Source: Bilabrum cf. latius (taxonomy: Eukaryota). Taken from it: a stretch of DNA of 64,000 bases. The stretch covers positions 124,001-188,000 of the forward strand of contig OZ237771.1 in assembly GCA_965178125.1 (NCBI GenBank), in the 5' to 3' direction. The notes beneath the pieces were generated by a model, which saw nothing but the letters and a program-made list of their open reading frames with translations, did no database searches and was not told where the DNA came from. This document shows, one piece after another, positions 4,350-64,000 of the stretch. Every line of letters begins with the position of its first letter. Positions within the stretch are counted from its first letter, which is position 1. Position numbers and translations under genes: made by a program.

Positions 4350-7300
4350 TCATTCGGGGGTCCCACTGGCAGAAGCTTCTAGTTGAGCTAAGGGTCTCCG
4401 AACGGCTTCTCCACAAATCTGGACGGTTTTGCCATGTGCTATGAACACTGCAGCCATCGCAGCTAGGCCCCCGATGAATGCACCAGCAGCTTGCCCGTAC
4501 TGACGGCCGATGGCAGCGCCTGCAAGCGCGCCGGGGACAGCTCCAACCCCACCTCCTAGGGAGCCTGCGATCGCTCCAACAATGACACCAACCGCTGGAC
4601 CAATAGCACCTCCAATACGTGCTCCCGTGGCCGCTCCAGCAAGACCTGCTTCGGTCATTGCGATACCGAGTGCTGGCATCGTTTTTACCTCCACGTAAAG
4701 CATCGTGCTCTATGCGGCTACCTCACTCCAGCGGTTCTCGGCTTCGTATACTTCCAGAAAAACAGTACCACCACGGGCAGCGATGCCAGCCCTTTTCATA
4801 ATTGTGCTGTCCATTACGCGCATGAACCTGTCTGCATACCTACTCATCAGACTGTCGGGCGTACTCCGCTCCAAAAAAAACCGGTACTTGCCATTGCGGT
4901 GCTGCATGCCAACTTCAGTGCGGGTTTCACCACTGAGCATATGGCGAAGATCCGAGGCAACCCTCTTCAACGTGGACGACGAAGCAGGGTGAAATCCAGG
5001 AGGTTTGCCGTCGCAGTAAGGGAATACCTTAACCAAGCAGCCGCCGGAAGTGCTTGGCACAGGGGCATACAACCGTTTTTGTAATAGATCCACACGCTTC
5101 CTATGATTCCCCTTCCGGGAAACGCTTAACCAGTCGGATTTTTCCTTCGGCATACTTCTCAAAAAGCTTTTCCACGCACGGCTTTTGCCCGTGTGCTGCC
5201 TGCCTGCTCGGATTAAAGCGTCACCAACCGCACTGCGACCATGCATTTGGATGATCCTGTCCAGCATATCTTCTGCAGCAGAAACTGGGCTCAGCATAGC
5301 ATGAGCTGTCTTTGTGAGTGCGCCGAAGTAATCAAGCGCAGTTGACCGGTCAATGACACGAACGTCCTCGATCGAGTCATCAATTCGTGATGGCGGCATC
5401 CTCACCGACGAGGCACTGCCCCAGAGTCCAGGGGTGCCCAGCGCCTGTGATCGACTGCTGGGCGCACGCCGGATCCCGAGATCGAACAGGCGGTCTTGGC
5501 GCTGCGCAGCACTTCCAGCTGGATCCCTGTCCTGCCTGTACAAGCCATACTGCACGCGCGTCGCAAGGTTGGGCTCGATGGCGCGCGGACCCACAGCGTC
5601 TAAAGCATGCCGAGGTCCACTCATGCGAGATGCCAGCGGGGTACCCTGGCCCGGCATCCGCATCGACGAGGCACTGCCCCAGAGTCCAGGGGTGCTCAGC
5701 GCCTGTAATCGACTGCTGGGCGCACGCCGGATCCCGAGATCGAACAGGCGGTCTTGGCGCTGCGCAGCACTTCCAGCTGGATCCCTGTCCTGCCTGTACA
5801 AGCCATACTGCACGCGCGTCGCAAGGTTGGGCTCGATGGCGCGCGGACCCACAGCGTCTAAAGCATGCCGAGGTCCACTCATGCGAGATGCCAGCGGGGT
5901 ACCCTGGCCCGGCATCCGCATCGACGAGGCACTGCCCCAGAGTCCAGGGGTGCTCAGCGCCTGTAATCGACTGCTGGGCGCACGCCGGATCCCGAGATCG
6001 AACAGGCGGTCTTGGCGCTGCGCAGCACTTCCAGCTGGATCCCTGTCCTGCCTGTACAAGCCATACTGCACGCGCGTCGCAAGGTTGGGCTCGATGGCGC
6101 GCGGACCCACAGCGTCTAAAGCATGCCGAGGTCCACTCATGCGAGATGCCAGCGGGGTACCCTGGCCCGGCATCCGCATCGACGAGGCACTGCCCCAGAG
6201 TCCAGGGGTGCTCAGCGCCTGTAATCGACTGCTGGGCGCACGCCGGATCCCGAGATCGAACAGGCGGTCTTGGCGCTGCGCAGCACTTCCAGCTGGATCC
6301 CTGTCCTGCCTGTACAAGCCATACTGCACGCGCGTCGCAAGGTTGGGCTCGATGGCGCGCGGACCCACAGCGTCTAAAGCATGCCGAGGTCCACTCATGC
6401 GAGATGCCAGCGGGGTACCCTGGCCCGGCATCCGCATCGACGAGGCACTGCCCCAGAGTCCAGGGGTGCTCAGCGCCTGTGATCGACTGCTGGGCGCACG
6501 CCGGATCCCGAGATCGAACAGGCGGTCTTGGCGCTGGGTAGCGCTCACGTGGGAGGACGTAGGGCCATGCCATGCACCGTACTATGCACTTGATTGAGAA
6601 ATGGTTCTGCCGTTCGATGCCGACATCCCGAGCACCGCTCTGTCGATCCTCTCGTTGTCTTCGTGCATCCTCGCATAGTACTGGTTGAACGCCCTTGTCG
6701 TTCGCTCGTCTACACGTACCGTACCGTCTGCTCCCCTTCGTGCGTACTGCCCCCACCTCTAGATCCCAGCACGATCCATGTTGACCACTGCTTGCGTAAG
6801 CTGGGGGCAGTTTTGCAGCCCGACCAGGGCCTCCCTTTCCACCAGCATACGCTGCTGCGTCATCGTCAGCTGCTCCTGCATCTGGATCCCGCGCGTGTGC
6901 ATGTGTTGTTCCACTCGCTGAATTGAGCCCATGAGACGCTCTGCAACGAGTGTACCAATGGCAGCTCCACCATCTTGGGCCCGAGCTGCGTCAACAAACT
7001 GCTTGCTCTCCTGCAGCATGCCCGACATCCTACGCATGAACCCATCGTCACAGATTGAAGCAGCTCCCAGCATGTGGATGACCGCACCGGTCTTGTCTCC
7101 TTGCTTCCTTGCGTGAATCATTTCTTCCACGTGATGGGCACATTGGGCCAGCTCCTAGATCAGCGAAGCCACCGACGTGCCTTCCGCCGCCGCTACGTTG
7201 GCTAGACCTACAAGTGCCATCGCTACGCCAGCGGGCCTGCGAGCATGCACCGCCATCCCGACCCTGCTTGCACTGCTCATAATGTTTCCGACTCGCTGCA

Positions 7301-7697
7301 AGCCGGGACTTGTCATGGACTCTCCAAACAAGCCGTAGCCATTTGTCCCAATAATCTGGCCCAATCCATTCAGAGCATTAAGCACACCGCTGGCTCCAGG
7401 CTTCCTCTCGCAAGCAACAGAGGCCACCGCATCGATTGCATTTGCTAGTCGGTATATAGAAGCGGCCTGTTTCAGCGTGGCAATAAGCTTAATCGTAGCA
7501 GGAGCTGTCGTGCTAACCGCAAGCGCACTCATGAAATTCCCGGCTGCCCAGGATATTGCCACCTGAGCAGCAATTGCAAGAGCTGGGTGGATCTTTGCTA
7601 GTGGTTTAGTTATTTTGGCTAAGATCTTGTTCACTGGTTTTGTGACCCTTCGCACTACGCGTACAACTGCACGGCACAACCTCCTAAAGAAGCCCAT
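4350..7697 (-). CDS. About 1115-aa protein: amphipathic basic N-terminus, 4.4 x 86-aa internal repeats, C-terminal glycine-zipper hydrophobic segment (4 in-frame TAG)
   Basis: ORFs 7155-7697, 6759-7130, 4710-6548 and 4350-4703 share one frame, separated only by TAG, and end in TGA at 4350. C-terminus GAATGARIGGAIGPAVGVIVGAIAGSLGGGVGAVPGALAGAAIG. Confidence 0.75.
5407..6537. repeat. 258-bp coding tandem repeat, about 4.4 nearly identical copies
   Basis: CGACGAGGCACTGCCCCAGAGTCC recurs every 258 nt and encodes the 86-aa repeat of the minus-strand gene. Confidence 0.95.
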
Positions 7698-8071
7698 CTT
7701 GGATCACGCTATCTTGCACAGTCTTCGAATCTTTGCAGTACTCGAATTATACACTAGAATATAGCACGAGATTTGACAAGTTTGTACCTTGCAAGTGCGG
7801 CCTATTTTTGCTGTTGTGGCTGGCGACAAATTTACGTCTTTCTGGATTTGTAGTGTGCCGGTGGGGAAACATGTAAATGATATTTTTTCTTGCTGCACGC
7901 GCAGATCGCTCATTAATATACAAGTATAGGCCAGAGGCACCGGGTTGAAAATCTCTAACATCATGTAAGCTTCAACATAATGAGTTAAATTTGTCGATGA
8001 ATCAGCAAATCAGCCCCGCCGGCGATCGATAAAGCACATCCTTGCATCCTGCTGTAGTTGAATGTACAAGT

Positions 8072-11000
8072 ATGTACCACTTCGCAGTCACAGTCATGTA
8101 CAAAGCGACATCCGCTGTACACTTTACTTGCTGCTGGGACAAGTACGACGAGCTCCTTGGATATGCAGGACCAGCTCAGCAAAATGCTGGACACACAAGT
8201 CTCAAGGATTTAATCGGGAATGGCTACATAGTGAAAAGCTTAAAGCAGATGCTGCAGGAACCTGCAACGGGGATCCTCGTCATTGCGTCAACCAATGAAG
8301 ATATTGTTTTCCAACAATTCAGCGGCCGCCTTGCGAAGCAGGCCGAAGGGTCTGATGGTGCCGAAAGCGATAGCGAAGATGAAAGTGTGGTCGAGCTTCA
8401 CGACCAAAGCCTGATGAATATGGTAGCACTTGCACTATCTGAGTTCGATGCGTATGCAAGGGTAAAGCAGAGCGAGTAGTGGTGGGCGCAGCCACCTCCG
8501 CCCAGTGCCTTTGCTAGTGTGGAGGAAATTCATGAGGAAGCGAGCGGGGCCAAGGGCACTGGTCCTGGTCCACAGTGGCAGGGCGCTGCTGGCGGGAGCG
8601 GGGCCAAGGGCAGTGGTCCTGGTCCACAGTGGCAGGGCGCTGCTGGCGGGAGCGGGGCCAAGGGCAGTGGTCCTGGTCCACAGTGGCAGGGCGCTGCTGG
8701 CGGGAGCGGGGCCAAGGGCAGTGGTCCTGGTCCACAGTGGCAGGGCGCTGCTGGCGGGAGCGGGGCCAAGGGCAGTGGTCCTGGTCCACAGTGGCAGGGC
8801 GCTGCTGGCGGGAGCGGGGCCAAGGGCAGTGGTCCTGGTCCACAGTGGCAGGGCGCTGCTGGTGGGAGCGGGGCCAAGGGCAGTGGTCCTGGTCCACAGT
8901 GGCAGGGCGCTGCTGGCGGGAGCGGGGCCAAGGGCAGTGGTCCTGGTCCACAGTGGCAGGGCGCTGCAGGCGGTCCACAGTTCAACTCCAGCAGCGATGG
9001 TGCGGGATCCGCAGCACCCATGCAGCCGATGCATCGGTTTTACATCACCATCCTTCCCTACATCTCGAGCGAGTTCCGGTTAGTTGCTGGGGTTGAGCTG
9101 ACACTCGAGTTCCATGACCACAGCCCCGTTGAGGCGCAACAGGACGGTGCCAGTGCCACCGCAGCAGGGGCAGGGGCAGCTATGTCAATGGGAGCCGGCA
9201 TGGACGCGGGAGCAGATCGTCAGAGGCTAGTCACTACGTCGCAGAGAGCTGCGCATGCGATCAAAATGGCCTTAGGCTGTTTAAGAACCAGCGGAGTATG
9301 CCCTCCCGCAGATGGGCAACAGCAAGATGCGGTCATCCCGCCCGGCTTGTCTCTTCTGCTGGCTCGCAATATGCCGTCAATGACCGCCGTGCTGACAGGC
9401 CCCGCCCTCATCACACTGAAGAGCCCACCGGGACTGTCTGAGCTGGCACAATCAGGCATGGTGGCACCGGAAGAAGTATCAGATGTGCTGGCGTCGACCA
9501 CTGAGTGCCTACAGAGGGCCTCAAACCTTCAGTACGAAAACCCTGGGTCATTGCCTAGCAGTCAGGTGTGGCTTCCCAACGACCTCTACCACGGCCTGCT
9601 ACAGCTGTATGCGGGCACTGACGTGCGCCTCCCGCTGCTGCACCCGGGCAACGTAGGAAGGTTCCTCGAGAAACTGACAGGCAGCCCGATGCCCGCATTT
9701 GCGGATCCTGCTGGTGCACCACGCCGCGGCCGTGGACCCGCTGCCAGCGGCGCCGGGGCCTCTGAAAGCAAAGAGGGCGGCGGTGGTGGAGGCAGCAGCC
9801 CGCTAGGCATGCGGCGGGGCGCATCTGCTGAGGCAGTAAAACGAGGCATGTACGTCAATCAGCGGGCGATCAAGCTGCTGTATAGCGATTTCCTTTTCGA
9901 CGCCTCCCATGTCAGGCGTGAAGGCGATATCCGAAGCAGAGGGGCAATCTTCCACGGGCCACCAGGTTCAGGGAAAACAACCATCGCGCGAAGCATGGTC
10001 GAAGAAGCAGGCTTCCACGTGATCATGGACTAGCCTGCCTCCGACTTGAACAACAAATACTTTGGCGAGACGGAGTCGAAACTGAGGAGGCTTATGGAGA
10101 AGGCCAAGTTGTTGCCTGGGATCCCGGCGGCGATTTTCTTCGACGAGATCGATTCGATTGCGGCAAGCCGCAGCGGGCTGACAGCCGCGAGCTCAAAGAT
10201 CGACGTGCTTTCAGGCATGCTGGCTCGCCTTGGCTCTGCCGCTCTTCAAAACCTCTACATATTCGGGACGACGAACCGGAAAGAAGCCATCGACCCCGCG
10301 GTCATGCGTCCTGGCAGACTGTCCACGACCATCTACGTTGGGCGGCTGTCGGTCCACGATCGCTGGCAGCTGCTGGAGCACCAATGGAGGCACGTCGGAC
10401 TTCCAGAGGTAATTATTCGCAGTCCGAAGTTCCGTACCATTGCCATTGCTGCGACACAAAACTTTACTGGGGCCCTAGTGCGAGAAGCAGTGAGTGCCAC
10501 GGCGAGTCGCCGAGAGCAGGACTATTTGGACTGGGGCCTGGACCAAGACTTGTACCAGTCCGGTTTTGTTCGGTCCGCGGAGTAGCTGGTCATGAGCGGC
10601 AACGACATTGATTTGTTCCCGAGACCGAGCTCCTGCGACTCCGTTCCGATCGAAGCTGATAAGGAACGGGCACTCCTTGAGCTGGTGAGGGGCAAGGGCT
10701 CGAGCGGGCGCGTCCTCATTGACCTATCCGACGGCACCAAATGCCAGGTCCTGGGCCAGGGCAAATCAGGCATGGTGAACGCGGTCGATCTCCACATCTC
10801 CCGCCCAGACGCTGACATAGTGAGAGGCGTGGGATTTGAGGTGGCCATGTGCAGCTAGCCAGAGACACTCCTCATGGTGAATTTGGGCCGGGTGGAAAAA
10901 GCAGACCAGGCTGGCATGGGCAACTACCTTAGGCCCTTCATGCATCTGATGAGCGAGGCTCGATCGATCGCAGACCAAGGCTCTGTGGTCGCTGTGATCG

Positions 11001-13798
11001 ATGTGGATGACCTGGTGGCCCCGCAGGAGGAACTCCAGGAGCAAGTCACGCACGGGCAGGCAGCAGGGCAAGGCAGCATGCAGAGAACGAGCCATCGGAA
11101 CTCCAGCGTTCTTCGCCGAGACATGCTGAGCACAGTGATATCCGAGCTGCAGCAGACACCGAGGGTGGGCCGGGATGGCTCGCAGTTCTGCTGCCTGATC
11201 GCAATCTCACGCTCCCCCATGGTAGTGGAAGAGCTCAAGAAAAACCTCAACTTTAGCATGACCTGGCACGGATGGAGTGCCACCGGCAAGGGCCCGAACA
11301 TTGCGGCCATCGGCAAGACTGTTCAGAACCAGTTCAGCAAGCGCGACTCAAAGGGTGAGCCTGAAGCTGGACCCTGGGAGATTTGCCATGCGTCACACCA
11401 GTTCTTTAAAGACTCTGATGTCTACATTCTGAGACCGTACTGGTCAGCAGAAAGCGGCGGAGACGTCATTGCCATCGGTGCGGTCCGACCCGGCACTATC
11501 ACTGCCAGCCAGTCAACGAAGGACGGCACGGCTCTGCCCGGAATTTCGTACAACCCGACCACCAGACTGCTCCGAGGCATCAAGAAGAGCTTTACGATGC
11601 CCAACACGCCCACTTTCTAGGTCAAGTCTGGCGATGTCATCGGGCTGATGCGGTCCGGCTCTAGGCTTGCTCTGCTGCGAGAGAGAGAAGGGCGGTTCCA
11701 TCACGCCTTCGACCTGTCAACCAACCTGACCGACCCTGACTGGCATATGTGCGTGTGGCTCAAAGGGGTCGCGAAGGCCAGCGCAAGGGTAGAGATGATG
11801 GGCGCCATGCCTCTGTCCTCTGTGCGAGCGAGCATTAGGCCAGCGGAAGTGTCGTTCGAATCGGAAGGAAACACCTCAGCGACCATATTCGTGGAGCAGG
11901 ATCAGATCGCCCAGGTTGTAACCACTGGCGGCGCTGCGGACGCCTCATGGCGAACACACACGATCCGTGGCGCCATGATGGGAGGCAACGGCCCATCGCA
12001 CCGGTATCTCGTAGATGTTCGTCTCCTTGACGTGGTGGCAGGGGCCAGTGATGTGGTGCTCGGAGTGGTTCCGACACTGAACATAGGGGCGGACCAATCG
12101 ACACGGCTTAGCAGCCCAGGGTTTGACCAGCGTCGACTGATAAAGCTATTCGGGGGCAGCATTGCTGGTTTGGAGGACTGCCCTTCGCGTCTCGACTTTG
12201 CTGCGCGTTGTGGCAGACCCGATGTTGCTGATTCGATTCAGGGACCCAGAACGAAGTGGATGCAGAGCCTGGAGTCCATTTTGAGGCAGGAGTGGGCCGA
12301 TGCCGTGCTCGAGGTGCACAAAGCCATTTGTCGCATGCCAGGTACTGACGGCATCGAGTCGCGGCAGCAGTACGCTAGGGTGTGCGACAGGGAAGATCTC
12401 TCGAATTGTATGACCAGGACTGCCAAGAGCGACTGGCCGGGTGAACTGCTGAAGTTGCGTACGGATGGCGTCAGACAGTTGTGGCCGCAGCTACGTGGGT
12501 CCCCCCACGATTTTTCCCCAGAAGAGTTGGGGCTAGACGACGTGTGGCCCTTTCCGCGGATCCGGCCTAGACAGGTGGACCTTTTCTTAGAAGCGTGCAA
12601 GTGGTACTTTGGCGGAGACACATACCTGCGCCATCCTGATGAGCTTCCAGCCTTCCAAGATCTCGCTGCGGCAGCCGGAGGTGATGCTGGTGCTGGTGCT
12701 GGTGCTGCTGCTGCTGGTGCTGCTGCTGCTGGTGCTGCTGCTGCTGGTGCTCCTGCTTCCGGAGCTGGTGATGATCGTGGGGCTGCACTTCTGCAGCTGG
12801 ATCTCGGAAAAGATGGCCCCACGAACCACATTGGTTCTGTGCAGCATTCAGGATGCGGGTACAAAGCCTTGGCTCACGAGCTCTGCTACGATGGGAAATC
12901 ACAGGCCCTGGACGGCTTCACGATGGCAGGCACGCCAGGATCCAAGTTGGCGATGGGGGACACGGTGCGCATGCTCGTGGACTTAGATTTTGACTCGGTT
13001 GGATTTGGCAGCATTTCGTTTGGGCGATGGAGGCCGGGTAGCTAGGCCACCGAATGGATGGGCCGTCTCTTCGCCGGCGCACTGCGCGATGGTGTTTTGT
13101 ACCAGGCAGCTGTCAGCTTGAGAGGCAGCAACGCAAGGGTGCAGTGCGTGCCGATTGCAATTACGGACAGGGATGCTCCTGCAGAGCCACTACTACCACG
13201 CCTTTGTCTAGGGCCAGCCGCTTGCATGCTGGCTACCAGCACTGATTTCAGCACAATCCACAAGCACGCAGCCGGGTCGGGGCCCACAGAATGGGTGACC
13301 GTGCGATACAGCCATAGGATGTCGTGGGGGGCTGAATATTATTACTGTCTCCAGATGCAGCACGTATCAGACGCTGCTGAAGTGGTGTTTGGCGTAGTGG
13401 ATGCAGATAACAACGAACTGCTGCCTGGTGATGGGGCCGAGGGGTCAACGAAACGGATTGGCTCTGGCGCCAGAACCGGTTGGGGGTACCACGTCGGGTA
13501 GCACAAGACATTCTCAGCCGGCACAACGGCTGACGTACCAGCGGGTCCGAGACCAGACGCCCAAGGTCGTATCGGCAAAGAGCTCGTCATGCGTGTCGAC
13601 CTCGGGACAGTCCCGAACCAACCACCCCACCCGGGTAGCATCTCGTACGGTTGGAAAGACCCTGGCAACCCAATGATCCAGTGGATGACAGCGCAGCCTA
13701 TTCTCTCAAGAGCTATCGTCACAGGTACTAAGGCCCCTTGCGTGGTCGTGTCGATCAAGACCCAAGGCGACCGCGTAAGATTAAAGCTTCTAGATTGA
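8072..13798 (+). CDS. About 1908-aa AAA+ ATPase (NSF/Cdc48-like D1, degenerate D2) with N-terminal Gly/Gln/Trp repeats and C-terminal SPRY/B30.2-like repeats (7 in-frame TAG)
   Basis: Eight consecutive ORFs share one frame, joined at TAG, ending in TGA. Walker A GPPGSGKT, pore loop NKYFGETE, Walker B IFFDEIDS, SRH GTTNRKEAIDPAVMRPGRL. SPRY-like strands such as GDVIGLM, GDTVRMLVDLD, VVFGVV...GWGY. Start codon uncertain. Confidence 0.8.
8543..8974 (+). repeat. 54-bp coding tandem repeat x8 (SGAKGSGPGPQWQGAAGG)
   Basis: Eight near-perfect copies visible in both DNA and translation. Confidence 0.95.
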
Positions 13799-15537
13799 CA
13801 ACTTATTTCAGTTGATGCATTGTGCCAAGACTACCTTTTATTATCCTTACCAATGTAGAAGGTTATAAATTCATACACCCAGTTAGTTAGGAAAATCCAT
13901 CTTGGCCTTAAGCATCCGATGCTTTTCGAAACCTTACGGTGCTTTTCGGATTAAACTACACCCCTGACCGTGCACGTCATTTGTGATATAGCTGTATCCA
14001 TACCATAGATGTGGTAAAGCGCTGTGCTATGGTCCTGCCTGCTTTGAAAGCAGCGCCGCACGCCGCAAGCAAACTCCATGGAATCTGCTTCGTTGGTGAG
14101 GCCAGCAAGGTCTCTGAGATTGAGGTCGCGCGGTGGGCGCAGGACCCGTTCGAGGTGCAGGAGCAGATGCGACGTAGCGATGCGGAGGAGTGAGAGAGAG
14201 AGAGAAAGCGGCTAGGGATGCAGACCAGGAGCGGCGGCGACGCGGGGTGGGCAACGGATGGAAAGGGGGGTGGTGTGGGTGAAGCAGAGAGAGAGGGCGA
14301 GGGATCGGGGGGGGGGAGGGGGGCGGAAGGAGAGGGCGAGGGATGGGGGGGGGTCGGGGTGGGGGCAGAGCAGAGAGAGAGGGCGAGGGATGGGGGGGGG
14401 GAGGGGGGCGGAGCAGAGAGAGAAGGCGATAGATGGGCGGGGGGGGCAAAGCAGGGAGGAGGGGGGGGGACGGCGGTTCACCAAGTGGGGAGGAATTAGT
14501 GGAGGAGAAGATGAGTGGTGGGGTCATCGGGTTGATATGGCGGATAGAAAGGGGGAGGCATAGGCCGGGCAGGTGGGGGTTTGGGCATGTGGGGGACGAG
14601 TGACTCGGATCAGGGGGGATCGGATCACCCTACCACATGCGGACGTGGAAGTTGAGAGGTCACAATTAGACTCGAGCGGCAATCAAGCCGCGTGCTATTC
14701 GGGCGCTGAGGGGCAGCGCTCGCCAGTTTTTGCTTTATTAACCTCTTGCTCTATGATATGGTTTCAAGTCAGGCATCATAGCAGCGCACTGAGCGCGCTG
14801 AACGTTGTAATCTCATGCCACCATGACAGCCCAAAAAAGCGGCGAGAGGCCTGAGGCACGGAAATGGGCGGTGAGTGGAGCACTGCATGGCAGCGGAGGC
14901 TGCCTTGCTGATGGCGGGGGCGTGTTTTCTGACCGTGAATGAAGAGGCTGGGCAAGGGCTTGGTCGCAGGCTTGCGTAGACGGAGCTGACCAGGTCAGGC
15001 TTGTGCGAAGGCGAGGGTTCATGTTTAGCCCTTTTTTTATAATACGAGCGGGGTGCTGGCGGGGTGATGCAATCAAAAATTTGACTGCGAGTGTCAACCG
15101 GATGACTCTCCAATCTGATTGCAGGCCACAAACATGGCATGCGACCATCAAGGCGGATGCGACCACGAGTGCAGCATGACACGGGGGATGCACGATCCCG
15201 GCTTGTCATTTCTATCGGAGGGTTAACCCAAGCATAGTACTTGGATTGACCACAACAAGTAAACACAAAAAATGAGAGAGCGGACATCGCGACACAAGGT
15301 ACCCGCGGCACCCCGGAGAACCGAGATACCGCGCAGCGCCCTGGCCAGCCGAGAAGAAAGCCACATACGGGTACCGATCCCGCACCAGCACCAAGTGGTG
15401 CACATACGGGATCAAACACCCGAAGCCAAAGACCCGGTGATGTCCGCAAACGGTTGAAATTCCATGTATTCGAAGTGCATGCTTTGCTATCCCTGATACA
15501 GTTTCTTCAGCCTCCACCAGGCACATGCCAATAATCT

Positions 15538-16020
15538 CCCCCCCCCCGTGTCGGCTATGCCTCGCACTAATAATTTGTTATCTATCGATAAATTATTATC
15601 TCAATATCACAAATTTCGCTCCGCTTCATTTGCTCTTGACAATTTCAGTAGAGATAAAAAGAAAGAAAATCAATAATAAGAATTATTAAATAGAGGAGAG
15701 GGAGGAGGGAGTGCATGTTTAGAATTAAAATATATTTTAGTATCAAAAAAAAAAAAATTATTAATAAATATATACATAGAGAGAGAGTTTCAAAAAAATT
15801 TCCGTACGAGGTTCTCCCTTTCCCTAAGTAAAAATCAGATAGTAAAAAGTGATAGTAGAGCTTAATAAGTAAAACAAAAAATAGAAAACATGGGGGAGTT
15901 ACAAACAAAAAGTGAAGACATCTACAATTTGGAATATTTCATTCAGGTTACTCACATGATGGTTAAGCGAAATTTGATATAAGAAATATATTAAATTTTG
16001 CGAGTATGTCATGTTTTAAT
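15538..16020 (+). repeat. Left terminal inverted repeat (483 bp)
   Basis: Reverse complement of 36308-36790. The same spurious 87-aa ORF appears at 15645-15908(-) and 36420-36683(+). Confidence 0.97.
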
Positions 16021-16085
16021 GTTTCTAGAATTTTAACTATTCTAAAAACACTTAAAGAATATTATATAATATATACTTATACAGT

Positions 16086-19040: not shown

Positions 19041-19133
19041 TATATAATACAATACGAAAATTATTTACTCGTTGTTTTTGGAATAGTAAAAAATCTTAAA
19101 ACTACTTAAAGAAATTAGAATAATATAATATAT

Positions 19134-52071: not shown

Positions 52072-54368
52072 ATGACGAAGCAGATCAGCAGGACTGGGGT
52101 TGGGGCCGCTCTCGTTGCGGTTGGTCTGCTGTCTCGGAGTGCGTTTGCCTCATGTCCGAATCATTGCTCCGGGCACGGTGAATGCAACTCCGGTCCACTA
52201 GTGCAGTGTGATTGCTTCTCGGGATGGGAGGGTGGCGATTGCAGCATCCGAAGCTGCCCGACTGGCGTGGCCTGGGCCGACATTGCGACGGCAGACAATA
52301 CTGCCCATGCCAGCGGATCGCTTTGCAGCAACCGAGGGAACTGCGATGAGAAGCTCGGACAGTGCACGTGTGCCGATGGTTTTGAGGGAAGGGGCTGCCA
52401 GAGAAGTGAGCAAGACACGAAGGAATTGCACCTCGTGCTCAGCTTCCTCCGAGCAATAGAATGCATTCATGCAGGCGGCACCAACAGCCCGACCTTGCTC
52501 CCGCACTATAGCCCACGTGCCCACGTATATGTATGTATATAGCATTTGCTGCACTGTGCATGTCTCACTCAACACTCGCAGTGGAATGTCCTCAGGATTG
52601 CTCGGCAGCAGGCACCTGCCTCTCGATGCGAAGGTTCGCCGAGCTTCAGTTCGACGGTAACGGCGCCAACAAGCTGTACACCACAAACTGGGACGCCGAC
52701 AAGATATTCGGCTGCAACTGCGACCTGGAGCGGGAGGGCTACGACTGCTCGCTCAGGATGTGCCCGCGTGGCGACGATCCGCTGACTACGGGGCAGGCGG
52801 ACGAGGTGCAGCTGATCGAGTGTGACGCGAGCGGAGGGACCTTCACTCTCGGGCTGGATGGGCGCACCACGGAGATTCTTCAGTTCGATGCCACGCACAG
52901 CGACATCAAGAACGCCCTGGATCGGATCGCGGGTGACGTCACCGTAGCCGGGCTGGAGACAAGTGACACCGTGGCATGCGACACTGCCACACCGCAGGCA
53001 TTCGCAGTGACCTTTCTGTAGCGGCACGGCGATGTGCCGGAGTTGAAGCTGCCCGCCGTGAGCACGCTCACTGGAGGCACGATGAACGTGGTGGACGGGA
53101 CCGATGGCAACAACGACCTGACCCATCCCGACAGCGCCAACGTGTTCAGCGCGGTCCAGGGAACAAAGGAGTGGGAGCTGTGCTCGAATCGGGGGCAGTG
53201 CAACACTGCCACCGGGATCTGCAGCTGCTTTCCCGGAATGGAGTCCAGTGACGGGCGGGGGAACCAGGGAACAAGGGGAGACTGCGGGTACCAGAACGAG
53301 CCCATCACGTCATGCCCCGGCATATCCGTTGAGTGCTCCGGTCACGGCAGCTGCTCGGGGAGCCCCGCATACAAGTGCACCTGCCAGTCGGGGTACACGG
53401 GGGGAAATTGCGCCCAGCGGACCTGCCCCACCGGAGCGTCCTGGTTCGATGCACCCAGCGCAGATCAACAGGCCCACGCGCTGGGCGCCGAGTGCTCCAA
53501 CCGGGGCCTGTGCGACCGCTCCACGGGTCGGTGCGACTGCGGGAACGGATTCACGGGCACGGCATGTGAGAGAACAGAGTGTCCCACCGGTGGATCCGGG
53601 CAGGAGGAGTGCGCGGGTCACGGCCGGTGCGCCTCCATGGCCACTTTGGCCACCCTCGCGGAGACCAATGGGGAGGACACTCCCTTCACCTACGGGTCTA
53701 CCTCGCCGAGCGACCACAGCACTTGGGATGCCTACCTGATGTTCGGGTGCAAGTGTGACGAGGGCTACGGGGGCCACAACTGCGCTCAACGGACATGTCC
53801 CCTGGGGGATGACCCCAAGACACCGGGGGTCAACGAGGTGCAGAGTCTCACCTGCGCCGCCGAGGGCGGGAGTTTCACTCTGACGTTCCGTGACGTCACC
53901 ACCGATTCCGTGGCGTACGACGGCACGCCAGCCGATTTGAAGACTGCACTCGAAGCCATTTCCACCACTTCGGTGACGGAGATCGCCTGCACCGACGGTG
54001 CCGCCTCCCCCATCTGCACCACCGGAGGGACGAACGTGTGCCAGGTGGAGTTCGTGGGTACGCACGGTGACCTCCCGATGATGACGTCAGACCTGTCAGC
54101 ACTGACTCACGGGACTCCGCCTGCCACGCTGGCGATCGCAGAGGTGACCCCGGGGACGACCGAGTCGATCGAGTGCTCCGGGCGCGGCACCTGCGACCGC
54201 AGCACAGGGCAGTGCAAGTGCTTCACGGGCTTCGGGTCCTCTGACGGGACTAACAGTGCCGGCAGCAGGGGCGATTGCGGGTACCAGCTGCCGTTTGTGC
54301 AGTACAACCAGCAGGCCGCGGGTGGGGATGCCGCTGTGAGCGCGCAGTGGCCGTTGCTTGAATCGTAA
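52072..54368 (+). CDS. Secreted EGF-repeat protein of the stramenopile mastigoneme (Sig/Ocm-like) type (1 intron, 1 TAG)
   Basis: CPNHCSGHG, repeated CSNRG.C, CP.GDDP and EVQ...C....GTF motifs. Intron at about 52406-52581; TAG at 53019; ends TAA. Confidence 0.8.
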
Positions 54369-54490
54369 ATGCATCCTTGCACCACACAATGCACGTTGCG
54401 TTGATTCCCACACTCGATATTAGTCGTCACATCGATGGATTCGAAACACGTTCGTCGGTTGTTTTGCTACAAAGCGCAGTTCGTACCAAA

Positions 54491-57400
54491 ATGAGCATAT
54501 CATCCTTTGTTGCATCTCTTGATTTGCCAGAATGGGAGCACGTTGGCCCTGCGCATGGTAGCTTTGACTTGCCGCAATCGGGCGCACCGACAGCCTAGGC
54601 TCAATTAGGTCCAAACCGAATTGGAAATTTCCAGCGTGTAGCTGGCCAAATTGTACCTGCTGCGCGACCTGTGGCACAGTATAATATATACAGTCGTGTA
54701 TCTCGAGATAATAGTTCGAAGCCTAAGAATAACGGTGTCGCTGAGTTCGGCGATCAAACCTCCCCGGCTGCCAAGCTGCGTGCCGTGTTGGACGGTCCAA
54801 TCTGGCAAGATGGTGACGCTCATCAATCCACGGCAAAGCAAACCGAGCAAGGAAAGTCTGGTGTCGAGGCTGCAACGGGCTTCATTGGAATCCGACAAGC
54901 AAGGCCAGCCGCTGCCGTCGCTGTGGATAGCGCGCCCGCACCGGTCCGGCGGTCGTCTGAAGCAGATACCAGCATACCAGACGCTGATGATACAATGTCA
55001 CTTGGCGACCGCGACGGTGTAGCGACCATCGTCGGCACACTAGACGCGGCGGATGGGGGCGCAGCTGCTATGCGACCTGAACCGAGCACGCGAGGCCAAG
55101 GAGATACGCCGGCCAGGACACGAGCGGAGAGTGCTCGTCACAGGAGCCGACCAGGCGATCGTACGAGAGAGTCTGATACCGACGAAGCTGGTAGAACCGG
55201 CGACGAAGCTGAGGGTGTGACGAGTGAGGGTGGCAGAAGCGAGGACGACAGCGCGGGCATCCAGGACGAGGGAGCGGAGGGCCGCTGGGGGATCGGATCA
55301 GGACCCGGAGTCGATATCGGGACGGGGCGCTCGCTGCGGGGGGAGCACCTGCTCGGCGAGACTGGTCGCAAATCCCGTGCGCGGTCCACTGGACCCGGCG
55401 GTCGCAGAGCAGAGCCAGAGTCTAGTCCTGCAGCTGCTGCTGCCGCCGCCGCCGCGCCCGACGGGCAACGGGATCCGGAATTGAAACACGAGTCGCCGCG
55501 GCCCGGCTCTTTTCCTGGCTGGAGGGCTGTGCAGGTGGTCTCGCCGCCCACTAGAGGTGTGACGAGTGCGTCCGTGCGCGGCGGCGGGCTGGGCCTGGGC
55601 CTTGGCCTGGGCCTGGGGCGCTCCTCTAGTCACCCTCACGACAATGGGGCCAGTGATTCAGCAGGCAAGCACGCCAGGAACCGGAATTTTGCGACCGAGG
55701 GGTCCGCATATAGCGGTGGCGGCGGCGGCGCACTCGTCACACGACACGGCCACAGAGCGGGACTCCCTGACAGTCAAGGGAAGGACCCTGTCCAAAGAGG
55801 TAAGCAGGACCGGGTCCAGGATCCGAAAGCTGTGGGACGGGCGATCGAGGCGGCGGCCGCCACGGAGAGGCTGCGGGTAACACTCGTCACACTGGCGGAT
55901 GGGGACGTGGGCGGGGCTTGGAGGACTGGGGGTGGCGGGAGGGCACCGGGATCGGATCATCCATCCACCGGGGGATTCGATGGTCCTGACGGCGACGTCG
56001 CACAGTGGGCAAAGCAGCAGCTCGCCACCGAGGATGCCATGCGCGGCGCCGATCAAGGCCGGTTCCGCAGGCTTGGCGAGCTGGAGGCGGAAGAGGCCGT
56101 GAGGTCTGCTTTGGAGGGATCTTGTTCCCTGGCTGCGAGGGCCGGCGCCGCGCACCTTGCGGAACTAGGAAGGGGTCTGGGTCGGGTCACTGACGAGGCC
56201 GAGTCGGAATTGCGCGGCGCCCTGCGGAACCTTGTGGGGCTGGGCAGGGGTCAGGACTGGGAGCGCGGGGAGCTGATGCGCGCGGTGCAGGGTGCATCGC
56301 AGGGTGGTGCAGGCGTATAGACCACGTATGCCAGTGCACAAATTTATGCCGCCATGGTATCCGGGGGTGGACCCGAGCTAGCCGTTGAGTCCTCGGGACC
56401 GGACCAGGAGTGTGACGAGCGTGAGGATGGCGCCGCTGGACGCCTGGCGGTGCTCCGGTCTCGCATCCGTGAAGCTCTCGGTGGACTCGGTGTGACGAGT
56501 GGTACCGATGTGACGAGTGCGGGGTACTCGCTGGGCAAGGGCGGCCCGGGTGCTGTGCAGGCTGGCGCGACGACTCGCACTTTCACCACCATGAGGCAGA
56601 GACAAGATCCAGACTGGGGAAATAGGGGCAGCGCGGGCTAGGAACACTCCTTGGAAGAGAGTCTTCGCACTCGTCACACCACTGAGGATGCATTGCGAGA
56701 GGCTCTGGAAGGCGACATGAAGGCCAGCCTCGGGGTCTTCCTGCTGGACGCGGGCCGTGTGACGAGTGAACGTGTGACGAGTGGTGGCGGTGGTATGGGT
56801 AACGTAAAGGAAGTCAGCACGGGGCCCGGAATCACACCCATGATCAGTTCAGTCCCGGGGCCGGGTGCCAGCTTGAGGATGCAGCTGCTGGGCGTGGCTC
56901 GCGCACGGGGCCTGGCGCGGGCCGCTGCCGGTGCCCTCAGGGGTCACCTGTCTGCGATCAGCGACCAGGTGGTGGGAGAGCACTGGGGAGATAGAGCCGA
57001 TGGTAACAGTGTGACGAGTGGTGGTGGTGGTGGTGGTGTGTCGAGTGCAGTGGACCAAGGGGAGGCGGCTGCTTTCCGAGTCGCTCTGGGGGCGCAACGG
57101 GTGCTGGCCCGGATCCACGGAATGCTGACGAGTGACCGCGATGAAGGTGTGACGAGTGACAAAGCATCAAAGACAGACGGTGTTGCGGGTGCAAACGATG
57201 GAAGGAACAGCAGCAGTCCAACCGGTGGATACACCTCCGGCGCACACCCGTTCGGGGGCCTCGCGACCGACGCGAACGCTGCTGTGGCGTTTGCCGGGGC
57301 CGCCGCTGCTGGCAAGCGGGCAACCGAGGAGGCGGAACAATAGATATCCCGGCTAGGTAACACCGGCTCCGAGTTGGTGGGACAGGCTTGGGAGGATGGG

Positions 57401-59698
57401 TTCCGCAAGGGCGCGGCCGGCGCCGCGCGCTTGCTCTTGGAACAGAGGCAGGAAGAGGTTCGTCGAGCCAGCGAACGTTCGCTGCGTGCCCAGGTACAGG
57501 ACCTGGACGATCAGCTGCGTGAGGCACATGAGCAGCTCCGATCGTCCGGGGAACAGCAGCGGCGGCAGATCGAGGAGGCCATGCAGCGGGGTAGGGAGGA
57601 GCAAGCGATGAAGGTGGCAAGGACCCGATCCGGTGACGGAGCTGGGGATGGGGCTGGGCAGGGGCCGGCTGCAGCCACTTGGCGGAGACAGCGAAAATTG
57701 CAGAGGATGCGCCGGCATTTTGGTGTGACGAGTGAGCTGTGTTCCAAAGGCGTGCTGCCGGGGAGGACGCGGGGCGGACGCAGCGCCGAAGATGAAGACA
57801 AATACCGTCGACAGGAGGCGGCGCTTGCGGAGCTCGGGGCTAGGGCACAAGAGGCCGAGAAGAGGGCCAGCGAGAGCGAGGCTAGGTGTGATGAGTGCGC
57901 TTAGAGAGAGCGAGATGCGCTGGAGCGTGCACGGGAGTGGGAGAACAAGTACAACGGCGCAGCAGAGCGGCTCGCTCGGGTGGAAGAAGGTGTGACGAGC
58001 GCGAGGGAACGATCGGATCGGCTGCAGCGCGCGCTGGAGGATGCGACCGGTGCCGCTGCGCGGGAAGCGGAGCGTGCCGGCTCGGCGGAGTCCAGGTGTG
58101 ACGAGTGCGAATCCAGGGCGCGCCGACTGGAAAGGGACCTCGTCGCCGTCAGGGAACAACTGCGCGGCGCCGAGGAACAGATCGACGCCATGCAGTTGGC
58201 CTCCGAGGCGCAGAGGCAGGCGGCGGCGCAGGCCCGCAGGGAGGCAGCGAATGCCCTGGAGCGGCTGGCAGGGCTGCGACGAGAGGTTGCAACCGGTCGT
58301 TCCAGAGAACAGGTGGCCCTCGCAAAGGGCGCAGTGGACAGCGCAAAACAGGCGGCTGGAATCGGTGTGACGAGTGCGCACGTGCAGCAGCCAGCGGGGG
58401 TTGGTGATACAACGGTGACGGGCCCACCCGGGCGCGATCGTCAGGCAGAAGAGCTGCATCCAGCGGTACCGGTCGTTGGCAGCACGGCCAAAACTGCGTG
58501 GCGTGACGTGGATCGACCGGTCAGGATTTCCGGCAGGTCTGGAGATGCACCCCCACGCAATGCACTCGACGAGTCAGGTGTATCTGCCGCGGACGTGGCA
58601 CGGGCGAAAAGCGCCGCGTCCAGGGCGGATCGAAGCTCAACGGGCATATCCAAGGGCATGCGAGAGGTGTCGGAGGAGGTGCGCCGGGCGCTCGAAGCGG
58701 CTCGCGCAGCGAGACGGGAAGAGGATCAGGCGAGGGCAGATGGGTCTGGGCTGGGGCTGCTGGGGGCCAGCTCGCGATCGGAAGATGAAGATGTTTGGGG
58801 GGATGGCTTGGGCAGCGGTGTGTTCGGGCAGGGAGCGGACTTGTCACATGTATCTAGCCTGGGCCTGGGCTAGCGGTTTCTGTCATTGTCAAATCGTCAG
58901 AAGCAGCAGCAGCAGCGGCGGCATCAACAGTAGAAGCGGAAGCAGGAAGAGCATGGCGGTGGTGGTACCAGGCATGGCAGCGTAGGGTCTACGGGTGCAT
59001 TGCACGGTGGTGCTTCCTTGCTTGCAACGGGAACGGCAGCAGCAAAGAGTAGAAACCATGGTGCAGACCCCCCACCGGGTGCACAGAGGCACGGGCAAGG
59101 ACAGGTGTAGGAGAATGGCGCCGGCAGGAGCCATGCAGGGCTGGCCACACTGCTGGGTGATAACAGCCAAGATGAGGATGATCAGAATAAGACTGATGCA
59201 TTGGGTGGCGCCAGGGACGGCACCGTAGCCGGCGATGCCTCCTCTCTAGGCCTTGGTGGAGCCGGCATCACGGGTGAGGATGCAATTGGGCGAGAACAAG
59301 AATACCGGGAAGAAGCGTCGACAGGCCTCTTGGAGGGCGGCGGAGGCAGCAAGGACGGGCAGGCGCAGGATGAGGATGCGAGACGCGCTGGTGTGACGAG
59401 TGTTGGTGTGACGAGTGATGAGTTCGCCTCTCTTCTCGGAGAAGAGGATTCCCATGACGGTGACATCGCCGTTATGGATCGAGCCAATGAGAGCGTGACG
59501 AGTGATACACTCGATGCAGAGGATCAGTCGCTGCTGCTCGGTCGCACCAGCAGGACGCTGGCAACTGCAGAGCTGCGGCGGCGCTGGGAGCAGGAGGACG
59601 AGGAGCTGCAGCGGAGCATGCAGGCACTGGATGAGCTGGCAGGCCAATGTGGCGATGTGAATGGGAGTGTTGACGTGCCTGCCGAATAGCCCCGTTGA
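54491..59698 (+). CDS. About 1735-aa low-complexity/coiled-coil protein (9 TAG)
   Basis: Seven ORF-track fragments are in one frame separated only by TAG, ending TGA. Heptad-rich region at 57430-58300. Confidence 0.7.
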
Positions 59699-60042
59699 TG
59701 CCGTTTTGCAGCAGTCGTTGCATTTTTCATGGGGTAGTCTACTCGGTAAGCCTACAAAATGGTTTGTCAGCACATTGATTAATGTGGGCAATGCCACTGG
59801 GCATGATGATCCGGGATGAGGCGAGTCCAGCAAGGCAGTCCTGGCACCCAGCATCCACGGGATCGTAGCAATCCTTTGGATGTACGTTTAGATAGGTTGT
59901 ACAAGGTAATAAGTATACCCCGTATTACGACGCACGGCCTTGCAGCCCAGGGTAGATCTATACTCCATCCCAAGGATTGATGTATGAGTAGGAGTGGTGA
60001 TTAAGGATCCGGGCGGATGGATCGGATACAGGCGAGGAAGGG

Positions 60043-60208: not shown

Positions 60209-63200
60209 TCATTTCTGCCCGTTTTGCTTCCGGATCGGGTTGACGACTGGACTCATGCCGTGGCGCCTGTTCAGGATTTCATGTCCCGTCTAAACAGGCT
60301 GCCCAGTGTTGCAGTCGACCGGTGCCTCTGTCTGGACCCTTCTCGAACCGCTTGCCGTGACACAGAATGACACATACTCCAAGTGCCACGCAACAGCTAG
60401 AGCAGCTGCGACAAGGACTGCGGTACAAAGAGCGCCGACCACAGCGGCGACACCTGCACCCAGCCCACCAGGCCCAGAGTCGCTGTCTCCACAAACTGGT
60501 TGACCACCAGGTCTTCCTCCGGTCGCACCTGTAGCTCGGATTCCAGTGCTAACCACGTCGGTCTCCAATATAAGCACGGACTGCTGGATGCCCGAAGTAT
60601 CCAGAGCCAGCCGGTCCTCAATCTAGGGAACAGCAGCGACCAGGTCAGATGAAAGCGGGCTGTTTGCAGCTGACTGGCTGCCTGTGATATAGGTCATTAC
60701 ATCTGACGTGATCCGCTACATATCAGATGAAGGTGGGAAGCGCAGCTGCACACCGATCTGTAGGGTGCTTTGCTCGGCTGATTGCGCTGACCTGGCCCTT
60801 GGCTCCCCTCGCATGTTGGACAAACGCTCCATCCTCCTGCGCGCGCCAACAAGGGAATCGCCATCACCGCTCACGCTCGTCACCACCACAGAGTGGGCAT
60901 CCGCCGCATCCAGGAGCAGCTCCTCCATGGCCTTCGCCACTGCACGTACGAACTAGGTCCTGCCCAGGCCAAGCAATCGCAGATTGTTTACTTGCAGGTA
61001 CGCACCTACGGGGCTAATAGCCGGAGCACACACCTGAGTGCTATTCTCGCACACGAGACCAGAGGCACAGTTGTCGTTCGTGTTGCAATTCAGACCAGCC
61101 CTGCACAAGACACAGCCTTTGCCAAGCTCAATGCCACAGTCGACGTCCGTTTCCAGGCCATTCTGGTAGCTGTCCTGGCATGTTGGACCATTCGATTGTT
61201 GTAGCAATGTGCAAGCACCATTGCTGTCACGTAGATACCCGGGATCGCACATACATTCGAAGCTGTCTGATGATGCCAGACCAAGGCAAAGGCCATTGCC
61301 GCACGTACCCGTACCAACACCGCAAGGGTCCACTGGCACTTGCATGCGCTGCTGGCGGCACGTCGGCCCAAAAAAGTCTCTCGGACACTCGCACTGAAAG
61401 GAATCCGCCCGCTGTACGTTGCACACTCCTCCGTTCAGGCACGGATTTGGCAAACAGGGGGCTGCGCTCTCGCCTGCGCTAGTAGTTACCTTGGGGTCAG
61501 CAGAAGGAGAGCCAGCTGGAAGAGACGACGGGCTTACTTGCGCGTCCGGAGTTGGCGAAGAAGTGGATGGCCCTGGAGATACAGACGATATCTGTACCGT
61601 TGGCATAGGTGACGATGATACGGGTGCGCCTTGATCAATCGAGGGGCTGGGCGAAACAGGTGCTGCACTATTGGAAGGCCCGACTGGATTGCTGGACGGT
61701 GCTGCTGCCCCGGATGTTGTCGTCGGCGAGCTGGAAGTCGTCGATGAGCCGGTAGTTGGTGATGAGCTGGACGTCGTCGATGAGCTGGATATCGTCGACG
61801 AGCTGGCAGTTGGTGATGGGCTGGCAGTTGGTGATGAGCTGGATATCGTCGATGAGCTGGCAGTTGGTGATGGGCTAGCAGTTGCATACATTGACGGTGA
61901 AATAGAAGGCGAGGGGGAAGCTTCCAGGCGATCCATCCTAATACTCAGCAGCCACATGGTCCCAGACTCATCGCTAGGAAGACCAAGATTGTCATCAACC
62001 GCTCCGACAGCCAGAGTGAGGTTGGGGCCAATCATGGACCCAAAGTCCAACATCGCAACACTGGAGCCAAAGCCGGTGTATGAATCTGTGAACGTTCGGA
62101 AGTCCCCGATTGTGTCGTAGATATCTTGCTGCGCCGTAACCCAGCCGCTAGAGTTCAGGTGCAGGATCCAAACCGCCCCGTTTGGATACTAGCTGGACAC
62201 TCTAAGTCTGCCACCAACAGCCACAGAAACTGCAGCACCTGGGTGTAACCGACCAAGTGGAGCGATGGAGGTTCCAAATTTTTCTAATCTCAAGCCTTGA
62301 GTGATCATGCCGCCGTGAATCCCCGAGATGTTCTGAATGACATCATGTTCGAGGGCTCCGTTAATCGCTAGGATCCAGACAACCCCCTCTGTGAAAAGCA
62401 TCTCACTAGGCCGGGCATTGGGTGCACCTATTGCGATCCAAAGAGCGCCTTCAATGCTGCCTAGAAGAGCAACAGATGAGCCAAAAGCCGGGAACCGATT
62501 TGAAATTCCAGAATCCTACGCAGGCTCAACAATTCTGACGGATTTCTGCACCGACATGTCCTCTCCCAACGAAATGACGTACACCACACCCTGGCTATTT
62601 CGGTCAGCACCGTTTTCCTGAGGTGCTCCTACTGCTATGGTCAAGTTGCTAGCCGGGTCGAGCTGCCCAAGCGAAGCCACAGAGGCCCCAAATCCTAGAG
62701 AAGAGCCAAAAGACACTTGGTGATCAGCATGCGAACTCGATATATCCGACCAGTTACTCAAGCTGCCATTTGCGTGAAGATGCAAGAAAAATACACCTCC
62801 CCATCTCCCATATCGACTTGCACCAACGGCAAGCGATACAGCCCCTGGTGTGTCTGGGTGCAGCTGGCCAAGCGAGACTAGTGCACAACCAAAATCTTCG
62901 GCCGGACGGATCAGAGGCAGCCCGTCTTGACCACCAAGTATGCTGTGATATCTAGCTACTGTACCGTTGGAATGCAGATACAGGAGCCACACAGCATTGC
63001 TGCGCGAAGCCCCGACAGCTACTGCTTGCGCATGGTCATCACCAAGCTTGCCAAGCACCGCGACAGCCGATCCAAAGTCACCTGTTAGTGCTCCATCACC
63101 GTCGAATCCGCGCAGGGAGCTCCCAATGCGAACAGCATCAGGGACGAGTTCCGGCTCGGTTTCAATCTGCTCGATATCGATCCGCCAGAAGGCGCCCATC

Positions 63201-64000
63201 TCTACTACCGCCTCGCCGATTGAGTCCTCTGGACTGCCCACCAATAGGGTGTAGTTGCGACCAGACCCTGGGAAGACGGAGAGGGCGTGGCCAAACATGT
63301 TCGAATCACCGATCGCTGGGAAGTAGTTGAAACGGGGTGCGACGAGCTTGGTGCTGCTCATCACGCTCATGTCCGGCCTGAGGCTGAGAAGCCAAACTGC
63401 TCCGGTACCACCAGTCACATCGTTGGGTGGCTAGCCCCCTACGGCAATGTTTAGCGCAGCTCCCGGATCGACTCGCCCAAGATACAATACAGATGTCCCA
63501 AAGTGGTCGAATGCGGAGGAGTCAAGACTGGCTTGCTCAAAGTCAACCATCGGGCCTGTGATAATTGACGATCCGTAGAAAGATAGGTCATGCCGTAAGT
63601 GCACCAAGTGAACTCGCCCGGAAGACCCATGGGATGCATCACCAGGGGCCCCCACTCCGAGGGTCAGTGAAACGTCCAGGCTAACTCGGCTCATGGTCTC
63701 TATGGTCGGGTCAGGAGGTGGAAACGAAGCCAAAGAGGCGCCAAACAACATGCTGTGTTCGATCGAAATGCCGGTCGCTCTCGACAGCAACTCGCTACGA
63801 CGCACAAATCCATTGGATTGCAAGTGAATCAGCCACACAGCACCGTAAAAAATGAGTCGAGCTTTTTCGTGGAAAGGCTCCCCGACCGCGATACTGGCAG
63901 CGACATTTTCATCCGCCGCAATTTGCCCTAGGGACGCAACGGAAGCCCCGAACTGGCCAACTCGCTCCGCACCAAAACGGCCATCCCAACCATCAATTGA
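60209..64000 (-). CDS. Integrin-alpha-like FG-GAP repeat membrane protein with Ser/Thr stalk, EGF domains and C-terminal TM (5' end outside window, many TAG)
   Basis: Repeated FG.S.A.LG...AVGA...GAVW units, CLPNPCLNGGVC, and TM GVAAVVGALCTAVLVAAALAVAW. The frame runs through TAGs to TGA at 60209. Confidence 0.8.

Follow-up and report, generated by a model that had tools for sequence, protein, structure and literature searches.

In a 64,000-nucleotide stretch of the genome of Bilabrum cf. latius (GenBank assembly GCA_965178125.1, contig OZ237771.1, positions 124,001 to 188,000 of the forward strand; hereafter the window, in whose own coordinates all positions are given), most long genes contain in-frame TAG codons, in the host DNA as well as in an integrated virophage-like element that resembles mavirus. 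We propose that the nuclear/cytoplasmic translation of this organism reads UAG as an amino acid, most likely glutamine (Gln, Q), and stops only at UAA and UGA. We assign to this reading a probability of about 0.82. A code of this kind corresponds to NCBI table 15. A preliminary description of the same DNA had taken UAG as sense, probably Gln, and UAA as a stop, and this is borne out here by in-frame codon counts, RNA contigs, a polyadenylation site and the columns of homologue alignments.

Fourteen coding segments of the host, whose frames were set with the aid of introns seen in RNA, amount to 9514 codons and contain 44 TAG in frame and neither TAA nor TGA, the other two frames of the same segments containing 146 TAG, 65 TAA and 370 TGA. 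At least one in-frame TAG is present in 10 of the 14. The eleven open reading frames (ORFs) tallied in the element (4673 codons) give a similar picture, with 39 TAG, no TAA and no TGA in frame and 232, 570 and 309, respectively, in the other frames. Host and element together thus provide 14187 codons without a single in-frame TAA; none had been met in the preliminary description either, and none is found in the 9514 host codons. Part of this absence follows from the procedure, in which TAA and TGA served to mark the limits of the ORFs. Independent support comes from the lengths of the ORFs, a codon-opening control, the polyadenylation site and the agreement of gene ends with those of homologues. 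With the standard code, ORFs of the window reach at most 624 codons. When TAG alone is opened, this maximum rises to 1922 (1779 for the next longest); it is still 624 when TAA alone is opened and 738 when TGA alone is opened. Host ORFs of up to 1918 codons are free of frameshifts. Of the 12 host gene models, TGA closes 11 and TAA the remaining one. In the element, 7 of the 11 ORFs end in TAA as first delimited, and 8 once the capsid ORF is extended through an in-frame TGA discussed below; the final TAA of this capsid gene falls within 2 residues of the C-termini of its homologues. The flanks of the window are GC-rich (about 57-58% guanine plus cytosine, GC) and surround an island of 31% GC. 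TAG makes up 39 of the 153 TAG, CAG and CAA codons of the element, versus 44 of 454 in the host, a higher share that would be expected from AT-biased mutation once the change from CAG to TAG had become synonymous.

The TAG codons of the host genes are also found in RNA. Seven public sequencing runs (X1 to X7) contain the segment 42600-52599, and four were aligned to 40000-59999, none of which shows any differing letter or indel relative to the window. X5, X6 and X7 were produced in two studies, neither being that of the DNA runs, and their contigs show six introns removed at GT..AG joints (about 41228-41317, 41390-41853, 47802-47904, 49536-49733, 50213-50392 and 52406-52581). Inside these RNA contigs lie 12 of 12 TAGs of the following genes: a WbsX/GH99-like gene, termed WbsX1 (42952-44331, minus strand; Pfam PF14307, E = 1.1e-25; TAGs at 44110-44112 and 43738-43740), its divergent paralogue WbsX2 (44504-45808, plus strand; three TAGs), a glycosyltransferase exon with the DXD region (46067-47801, minus strand, next to the intron 47802-47904; four TAGs), EMC6 (51420-51863, minus strand; TAGs at 51687-51689 and 51480-51482) and the second exon of a gene for a secreted protein with EGF repeats. 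The first four end in TGA. Since the 12 codons are unchanged in the RNA contigs, their removal by editing or splicing is excluded; RNA data had been proposed in the preliminary description as a check against editing, and they leave all 12 in place without a differing letter.

The EGF-repeat gene (52072-54368, plus strand; exons 52072-52405 and 52582-54368, intron 52406-52581) deserves particular attention, as it is the one host gene model that ends in TAA (54366-54368), as had been stated previously. Two TAGs had been attributed to its ORF at 52410-54368. One of them is indeed coding (53019-53021, exon 2) and is present in spliced contigs of X5, X6 and X7, but the first falls in the intron, so that the gene possesses one coding TAG and not two. 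A contig of X5 carries a loose end of 20 A after position 54389, that is 21 nucleotides past the TAA. This tail is not templated, because the genome reads TGCACG at 54389. Between the TAA and the start of the tail there is no other in-frame stop, and UAA must therefore terminate translation of this messenger. UAA and UGA are stops. The 3' untranslated region of this highly expressed gene is thus about 21 nucleotides long, and the ends of contigs suggest about 50-300 nucleotides after the TGA for its neighbours. On the other hand, translation continues past TAG. In WbsX1 a TAG occupies codon 74, and homologue alignments span this site as well as the remaining protein. In EMC6 (Pfam PF07019, E = 4.1e-09; human EMC6 in PDB, E = 4.4e-09) the conserved end is located after both TAGs, in agreement with what the preliminary description had noticed. 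The latter had also listed AAA+, glycoside hydrolase, glycosyltransferase, EGF and integrin-like genes as reading through TAG, and all of these are present in the sequence.

As for the amino acid that UAG specifies, Gln appears as the best-fitting residue in the alignments and, given that UAG is sense, we consider it very probable. The host gene WbsX1 provides the clearest column. Its homologues share 38-54% identity with it in the homologue search, the three nearest reaching 57-58% over 385-413 residues. Of 22 homologues aligned over the TAG at 44110-44112, 3 have a gap at this position and the other 19 all have Q, within the motif GH.QPN.P. Further sites come from two adjoining genes of the element, those encoding the major capsid protein (MCP; 32565-34361, minus strand; seven TAGs) and a penton-like minor capsid protein (34404-35360, minus strand; three TAGs), both ending in TAA. 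A full HMMER search retrieved 218 relatives of the MCP, the closest being P0013 (66% identity, partial), P0011 (61%, partial) and P0010 (50%). P0010 is encoded at L001, a metagenome locus, and its 73% relative at another such locus, L002. The penton-like gene is known through its homologue in L001, 49% identical, which adjoins the MCP gene there. Numbering the seven MCP sites in order, the residue opposite TAG is Q in P0011 and R in L001 and L002 at site 2, Q in L002 and A in L001 at site 3, Q in L001 and L002 and T in P0013 at site 4, Q in P0013 and S in L001 and L002 at site 5, and Q in both P0010 and L002 at site 7. In the penton-like gene, two of the three sites, the first and the third, face Q. 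Altogether, when each of the 12 sites is compared with the nearest homologue that covers it (48-65% identity), TAG is opposite Q in 6 cases and opposite E in 1, and Q is found in at least one homologue of at least 48% identity at 8 of the 12. Counted as pair-sites, TAG is opposite Q in 14 of 39 cases and the CAA and CAG codons of the window itself in 51 of 165. The log-likelihoods are -99.0 for Gln, -103.7 for glutamate (Glu, E) and -109.1 for threonine, leucine (Leu) not being among the best 8; they were computed on a small sample, and these alignments themselves supplied the substitution frequencies. A TAG placed in a Gln-rich run (CAT CAA CAG TAG), which had been pointed out before, is found at 58922-58933.

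Several observations weigh against this interpretation. Informative TAG sites with close homologues number 12 only, from WbsX1, the MCP and the penton-like gene, and at four of them every close homologue has a residue other than Q. These are MCP site 1 (opposite T), MCP site 6 (E in P0013, D in L001 and L002), penton site 2 (S) and the second TAG of WbsX1 at 43738-43740, whose column contains V 17 times, T 3 times, I once and A once in 22 homologues. A thirteenth site, in a fibre-like ORF, places TAG opposite D in a weak alignment. Glu is just 4.7 log units behind Gln, and the pair-sites are not independent of each other. The EMC6 TAGs face A and G in the human protein and K and E in the yeast one, and a TAG within the AAA domain of the AAA+ gene (10031-10033) faces K, R or V; these columns are variable, and both cases are uninformative rather than contrary. 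No tRNA gene was found in the 64-kb window, nor any match to Rfam families, and eRF1 is not encoded there. X5 is labelled 'probably DNA' and X6 and X7 are guessed to be RNA, the RNA nature of the three being deduced from their spliced joints and the poly(A) tail. Finally, the MCP gene contains one in-frame TGA (32943-32945), opposite a conserved Arg encoded by AGA in L001 and L002. Past this TGA the frame is open for 125 more codons, and the C-terminal domain aligns over its full length with P0010, L002 and P0013. The TGA is near the boundary between the 520- and 610-residue capsid chains of PDB entries 6g43 and 6g45. It could be explained by a nonsense mutation of very recent date, by a truncation that is tolerated or by programmed read-through, the element being otherwise intact.

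One would then wonder whether UAG could be sense and yet encode another residue. Glu is the next best, as seen from its rank in the likelihoods and from the MCP site that faces E or D, and PMC11687900 mentions UAG read as Leu, serine (Ser) or Glu in other lineages. Against this stand the host site at which all 19 homologues have Q, the preponderance of Q over E in the nearest homologues, the absence of Leu from the best 8 residues and the TAG lying within a run of CAA and CAG, and we regard such an assignment as improbable. Hardly better placed, though unlikely in its turn, is an ambiguous UAG, sense within genes and terminator near the ends of messengers, that is, a context-dependent stop. 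The sole measured 3' untranslated region is indeed very short, one ORF has a TAG (59687-59689) three codons ahead of its TGA, and some 23 gene ends are too few to rule out a certain amount of UAG termination; the last two points also speak against our proposal. However, 12 of 12 host models and 11 of 11 element ORFs reach TAA or TGA, and one TAG of the MCP gene is located 8 codons from the end, where the residues after it still align with homologues. As the other transcripts extend about 50-300 nucleotides past TGA by contig ends, short untranslated regions are not general.

The joint reassignment of UAA and UAG, with UAA merely rare in a GC-rich genome, would follow the usual pattern as described in PMC5304391 and PMC10553269, and the host is about 57% GC. 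We nevertheless hold it to be very improbable. Were UAA a sense codon, the 31% GC element would be full of in-frame TAA, whereas its 4673 codons contain none in frame and the other frames contain 570, and most of its ORFs end in TAA; this AT-rich element thus serves as an internal control that UAA has not been reassigned. In addition, the EGF messenger is polyadenylated 21 nucleotides past a TAA with no other stop available, and opening TAA does not lengthen the host ORFs. The least credible explanation, to which we attach almost no weight, is that the TAGs are removed by editing or splicing or reflect pseudogenes or assembly errors. Endogenous viral elements often show false stops from assembly, according to PMC10120064. 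Yet the RNA contigs pass through 12 TAGs without a differing letter or a joint, the DNA run X1 has no differing letter over 40000-59999, and runs X1 to X4 contain 0.99-1.00 of the sampled words of 42600-52599. Moreover, TAG is the only stop-like codon in frame, never TAA or TGA in the tallied segments, ORFs of up to 1918 codons have no frameshift, and the inverted ends of the element are perfect. We thus favor a UAG that is read as Gln in the presence of two functional stops, UAA and UGA.

By analogy with known cases, UAG would be decoded by a tRNA-Gln with the anticodon CUA, and the release factor eRF1 would have lost efficient recognition of UAG while keeping that of UAA and UGA. Codes in which UAG alone is Gln are attributed to the fornicate Iotanema spirale, the ciliate Protocruzia tuzeti and two phyllopharyngean ciliate lineages (PMC11687900, PMC5304391). 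In PMC11687900, UAG alone is given as Leu in an uncultured rhizarian and some ciliates and as Ser in Scotinosphaera, and one ciliate is reported with UAA as Lys and UAG as Glu. The splits between UAG and UAA named in this source, to December 2024, concern the rhizarian, Iotanema, Scotinosphaera, Protocruzia and some phyllopharyngean and oligohymenophorean ciliates. As in Iotanema, Protocruzia and the phyllopharyngeans, UAG is here best read as Gln, with UAA and UGA as stops. Unlike these organisms, the host studied here is GC-rich, has spliceosomal introns, carries a mavirus-like element and, in one informative gene tree, groups with choanoflagellate sequences rather than with those of ciliates or fornicates. 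The coupled code in which both UAA and UAG are Gln (NCBI table 6) is assigned in PMC11687900 to many ciliates, Hexamita, Streblomastix, some ulvophytes and Amoeboaphelidium; Gln as the residue and UGA as a stop are common to both codes, but UAA works as a stop in the present case. In the open-access literature that was searched, we found no report of a UAG-only code in a stramenopile, a choanoflagellate or the host of a virophage.

The present case therefore appears to be a new and independent member of an already known type of code. The sequence data date from 2025, and a description of the code of this organism may already be out or in preparation. An attractive but tentative idea, for which we see rather less than even odds, is that of an independent origin of the UAG-only Gln code outside ciliates and fornicates, maybe in a choanoflagellate or another relative of animals, with a resident, apparently intact virophage locked into the code of its host. 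Splits of UAG from UAA are rare in nuclear codes, and each further case tests whether eRF1 can drop UAG alone. Since DNA and RNA data both exist for this organism, its tRNAs, the changes in its eRF1 and its termination sites are directly testable. An annotation of the genome with the standard code would truncate most long genes.

The insert is, as far as its sequence allows one to judge, an intact mavirus-like element, as the preliminary description had supposed. It spans 15538-36790, has about 31% GC and is flanked by a 5-bp duplication, AATCT (15533-15537 and 36791-36795). Its left terminal inverted repeat (15537-16023) has 487 nucleotides and is 100% complementary to the right one (36305-36791), also of 487 nucleotides. 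Judging by these perfect ends and by its undamaged ORFs, the element was probably inserted recently and may still be active. The MCP matches PDB entries 6g43 and 6g45 with E = 2.3e-38, versus 1.9e-05 for Sputnik V20 (3j26), and the Pfam family MCP_V20_C with E = 1.7e-11. We take 6g43 and 6g45, whose PDB title is 'putative major capsid protein', to be the mavirus capsid protein. Neither the MCP nor its relative P0010 had a match in the viral contig collection.

Other genes of the element can be recognized with varying clarity. From the left end, we find a primase-helicase-like gene (DUF5906; 16086-18038, plus strand; two TAGs, ending in TAA), followed by a gene for a putative rve-type integrase with a chromodomain-like C-terminus (18030-19052, minus strand; two TAGs, ending in TGA), whose Pfam matches are below the curated cut-offs (rve 27.8 bits vs 32.6, E = 3.2e-06; Chromo 21 vs 25.1). 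The next ORF (19134-20996, plus strand; four TAGs, ending in TGA) had no match in Pfam or PHROG; from its D..SLYPS motif, and from this motif alone, we presume it to encode a family-B DNA polymerase of the protein-primed type. A packaging-ATPase-like gene (30899-31897, plus strand; four TAGs, ending in TAA) gives weak matches to PHROG 2666 (E = 2.6e-08) and to Pox_A32 (E = 0.0043, below the cut-off). Within the element, at 30600-31020, lies a patch of about 400 bp with 42-50% GC, flanked by imperfect inverted repeats of 34 nucleotides (30698-30731 and 30967-31000). It encodes the N-terminus of the ATPase ORF, unusual in being rich in Arg and Pro, and may be a small insertion derived from the host.

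A parallel can be drawn with two other systems mentioned in PMC10120064. Cafeteria is named there as the host of mavirus and of endogenous mavirus-like elements. The element described here resembles these in its MCP, its rve-type integrase, its long inverted ends, its short target duplication and its position as a low-GC island in a GC-rich host. It differs from them by 40 in-frame TAGs, by integrase and ATPase genes with Pfam matches below the cut-offs and by the cysteine protease, which was not found in the element; a stramenopile host is also unsupported here. The same source reports that endogenous viral elements of Streblomastix strix use the variant code of their host. In both cases an integrated virus is written in the non-standard code of the host, but here the virus is virophage-like, of the mavirus type, and TAG alone is affected. 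In addition, its relatives at 51% MCP identity, namely the metagenome loci L001 and L002, both of about 36% GC, have no in-frame TAG in their ORFs. As the element is in the code of its host and these relatives are not, we conclude that it has evolved in hosts with this code. It also provides an example of a mobile virus that has adapted to a non-standard code, with implications for how changes of code limit the host range of viruses. On the tentative idea of a virophage locked into the code of its host, 10 of the 11 tallied ORFs of the element would be cut short by its 40 sense TAGs in a host with the standard code. The change of code would then restrict the hosts open to the virophage, and probably those open to its giant-virus partner too.

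The preliminary description had placed the organism among apparent stramenopiles. This placement is not supported, as no tested feature points there and the named homologues of WbsX1 are choanoflagellates. Its only named eukaryotic homologues are from Choanoeca flexa, Stephanoeca diplocostata and Helgoeca nana, and a fourth EukProt row bears a record name in the same style as the choanoflagellate rows, with no species given. In a quick IQ-TREE run on this single gene (43 rows, few of them named), WbsX1 and two metagenome proteins fall in a six-row clade (98% support) that includes the Choanoeca sequence. This clade is nested in a 24-row eukaryotic clade (99% support) whose named members are only choanoflagellates. 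The second WbsX-like gene sits on a very long branch. Horizontal transfer of WbsX1 could also be the source of this grouping. Host genes contain about 1-2 introns each, a density that differs from that of sequenced choanoflagellates. The grouping is weak evidence, coming from one gene and a quick tree. We would place the host among choanoflagellates or other holozoan relatives, though at slightly under even odds. Some other lineage altogether is a serious contender too, and a stramenopile is unlikely. The last exon (exon 3) of the gene for ATP phosphoribosyltransferase (HisG; 41854-42572, plus strand; no TAG, ending in TGA), which follows the introns at about 41228-41317 and 41390-41853, yielded no taxonomic indication in the Atlas or in the protein collection. 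Bacterial-type long HisG proteins share about 55-65% identity with it, and it has one relative at 84%, P0261, on a 4.4-kb metagenome contig that would be from a close relative of the host organism.

The remaining host genes of the window follow the same rule of internal TAGs before a terminal TGA. An ORF of 1115 codons (4350-7697, minus strand) contains five tandem repeats of about 100 residues and four TAGs (7155, 6759, 6582 and 4710). The AAA+ ATPase ORF, of 1918 codons (8042-13798, plus strand; Pfam PF00004, E = 9.5e-26), has seven TAGs; a homologue search with its protein yielded only matches to the AAA domain, and eight tandem 19-residue GSGAKGSGPGPQWQGAAGG units are found in frame at 8500-9100. 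An ORF of 494 codons (38385-39869, minus strand), with five TAGs, has no family match. The EGF-repeat gene gives Pfam matches only to generic EGF/teneurin-type models. It is followed by a low-complexity ORF of 1773 codons (54377-59698, plus strand) with nine TAGs, and the window closes with an FG-GAP-like/EGF/transmembrane ORF (60209-64000, minus strand; seven TAGs) that continues beyond it.

Similar ORF fragments recur in the left part of the window, at 1550-2188 and 14769-15506 (minus strand) and also at 2-595 and 1497-1874. The fragments '...GRMPCLWPAIR...' and '...ALPASVTAAAHPI...' are each found in two places, one copy lying just left of the virophage-like insertion. They probably represent a dispersed repeat family. 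A palindrome, GTGACGTCAC, has three matches and is not enriched. The 12-mer GTGTGACGAGTG, on the other hand, occurs 27 times with at most one mismatch, versus 0.18 expected, between 42573 and 59504, and is densest at 55215-59504. We considered that it could act as a 5' splice site, but the RNA contigs pass unspliced through three copies (42573, 43143 and 49298) and this idea was therefore dropped. The low-complexity ORF at 54377-59698 contains 14 in-frame copies of GTGACGAGT, the core of this 12-mer, in the ...VTS frame. The 5' base of the 12-mer varies among them, three copies are one base off the full 12-mer, and 13 of the 14 are without synonymous variation. Elsewhere, one copy of the 12-mer (42946-42957) includes the TGA stop of WbsX1 and another (42573-42584) is directly 3' of the TGA of HisG.

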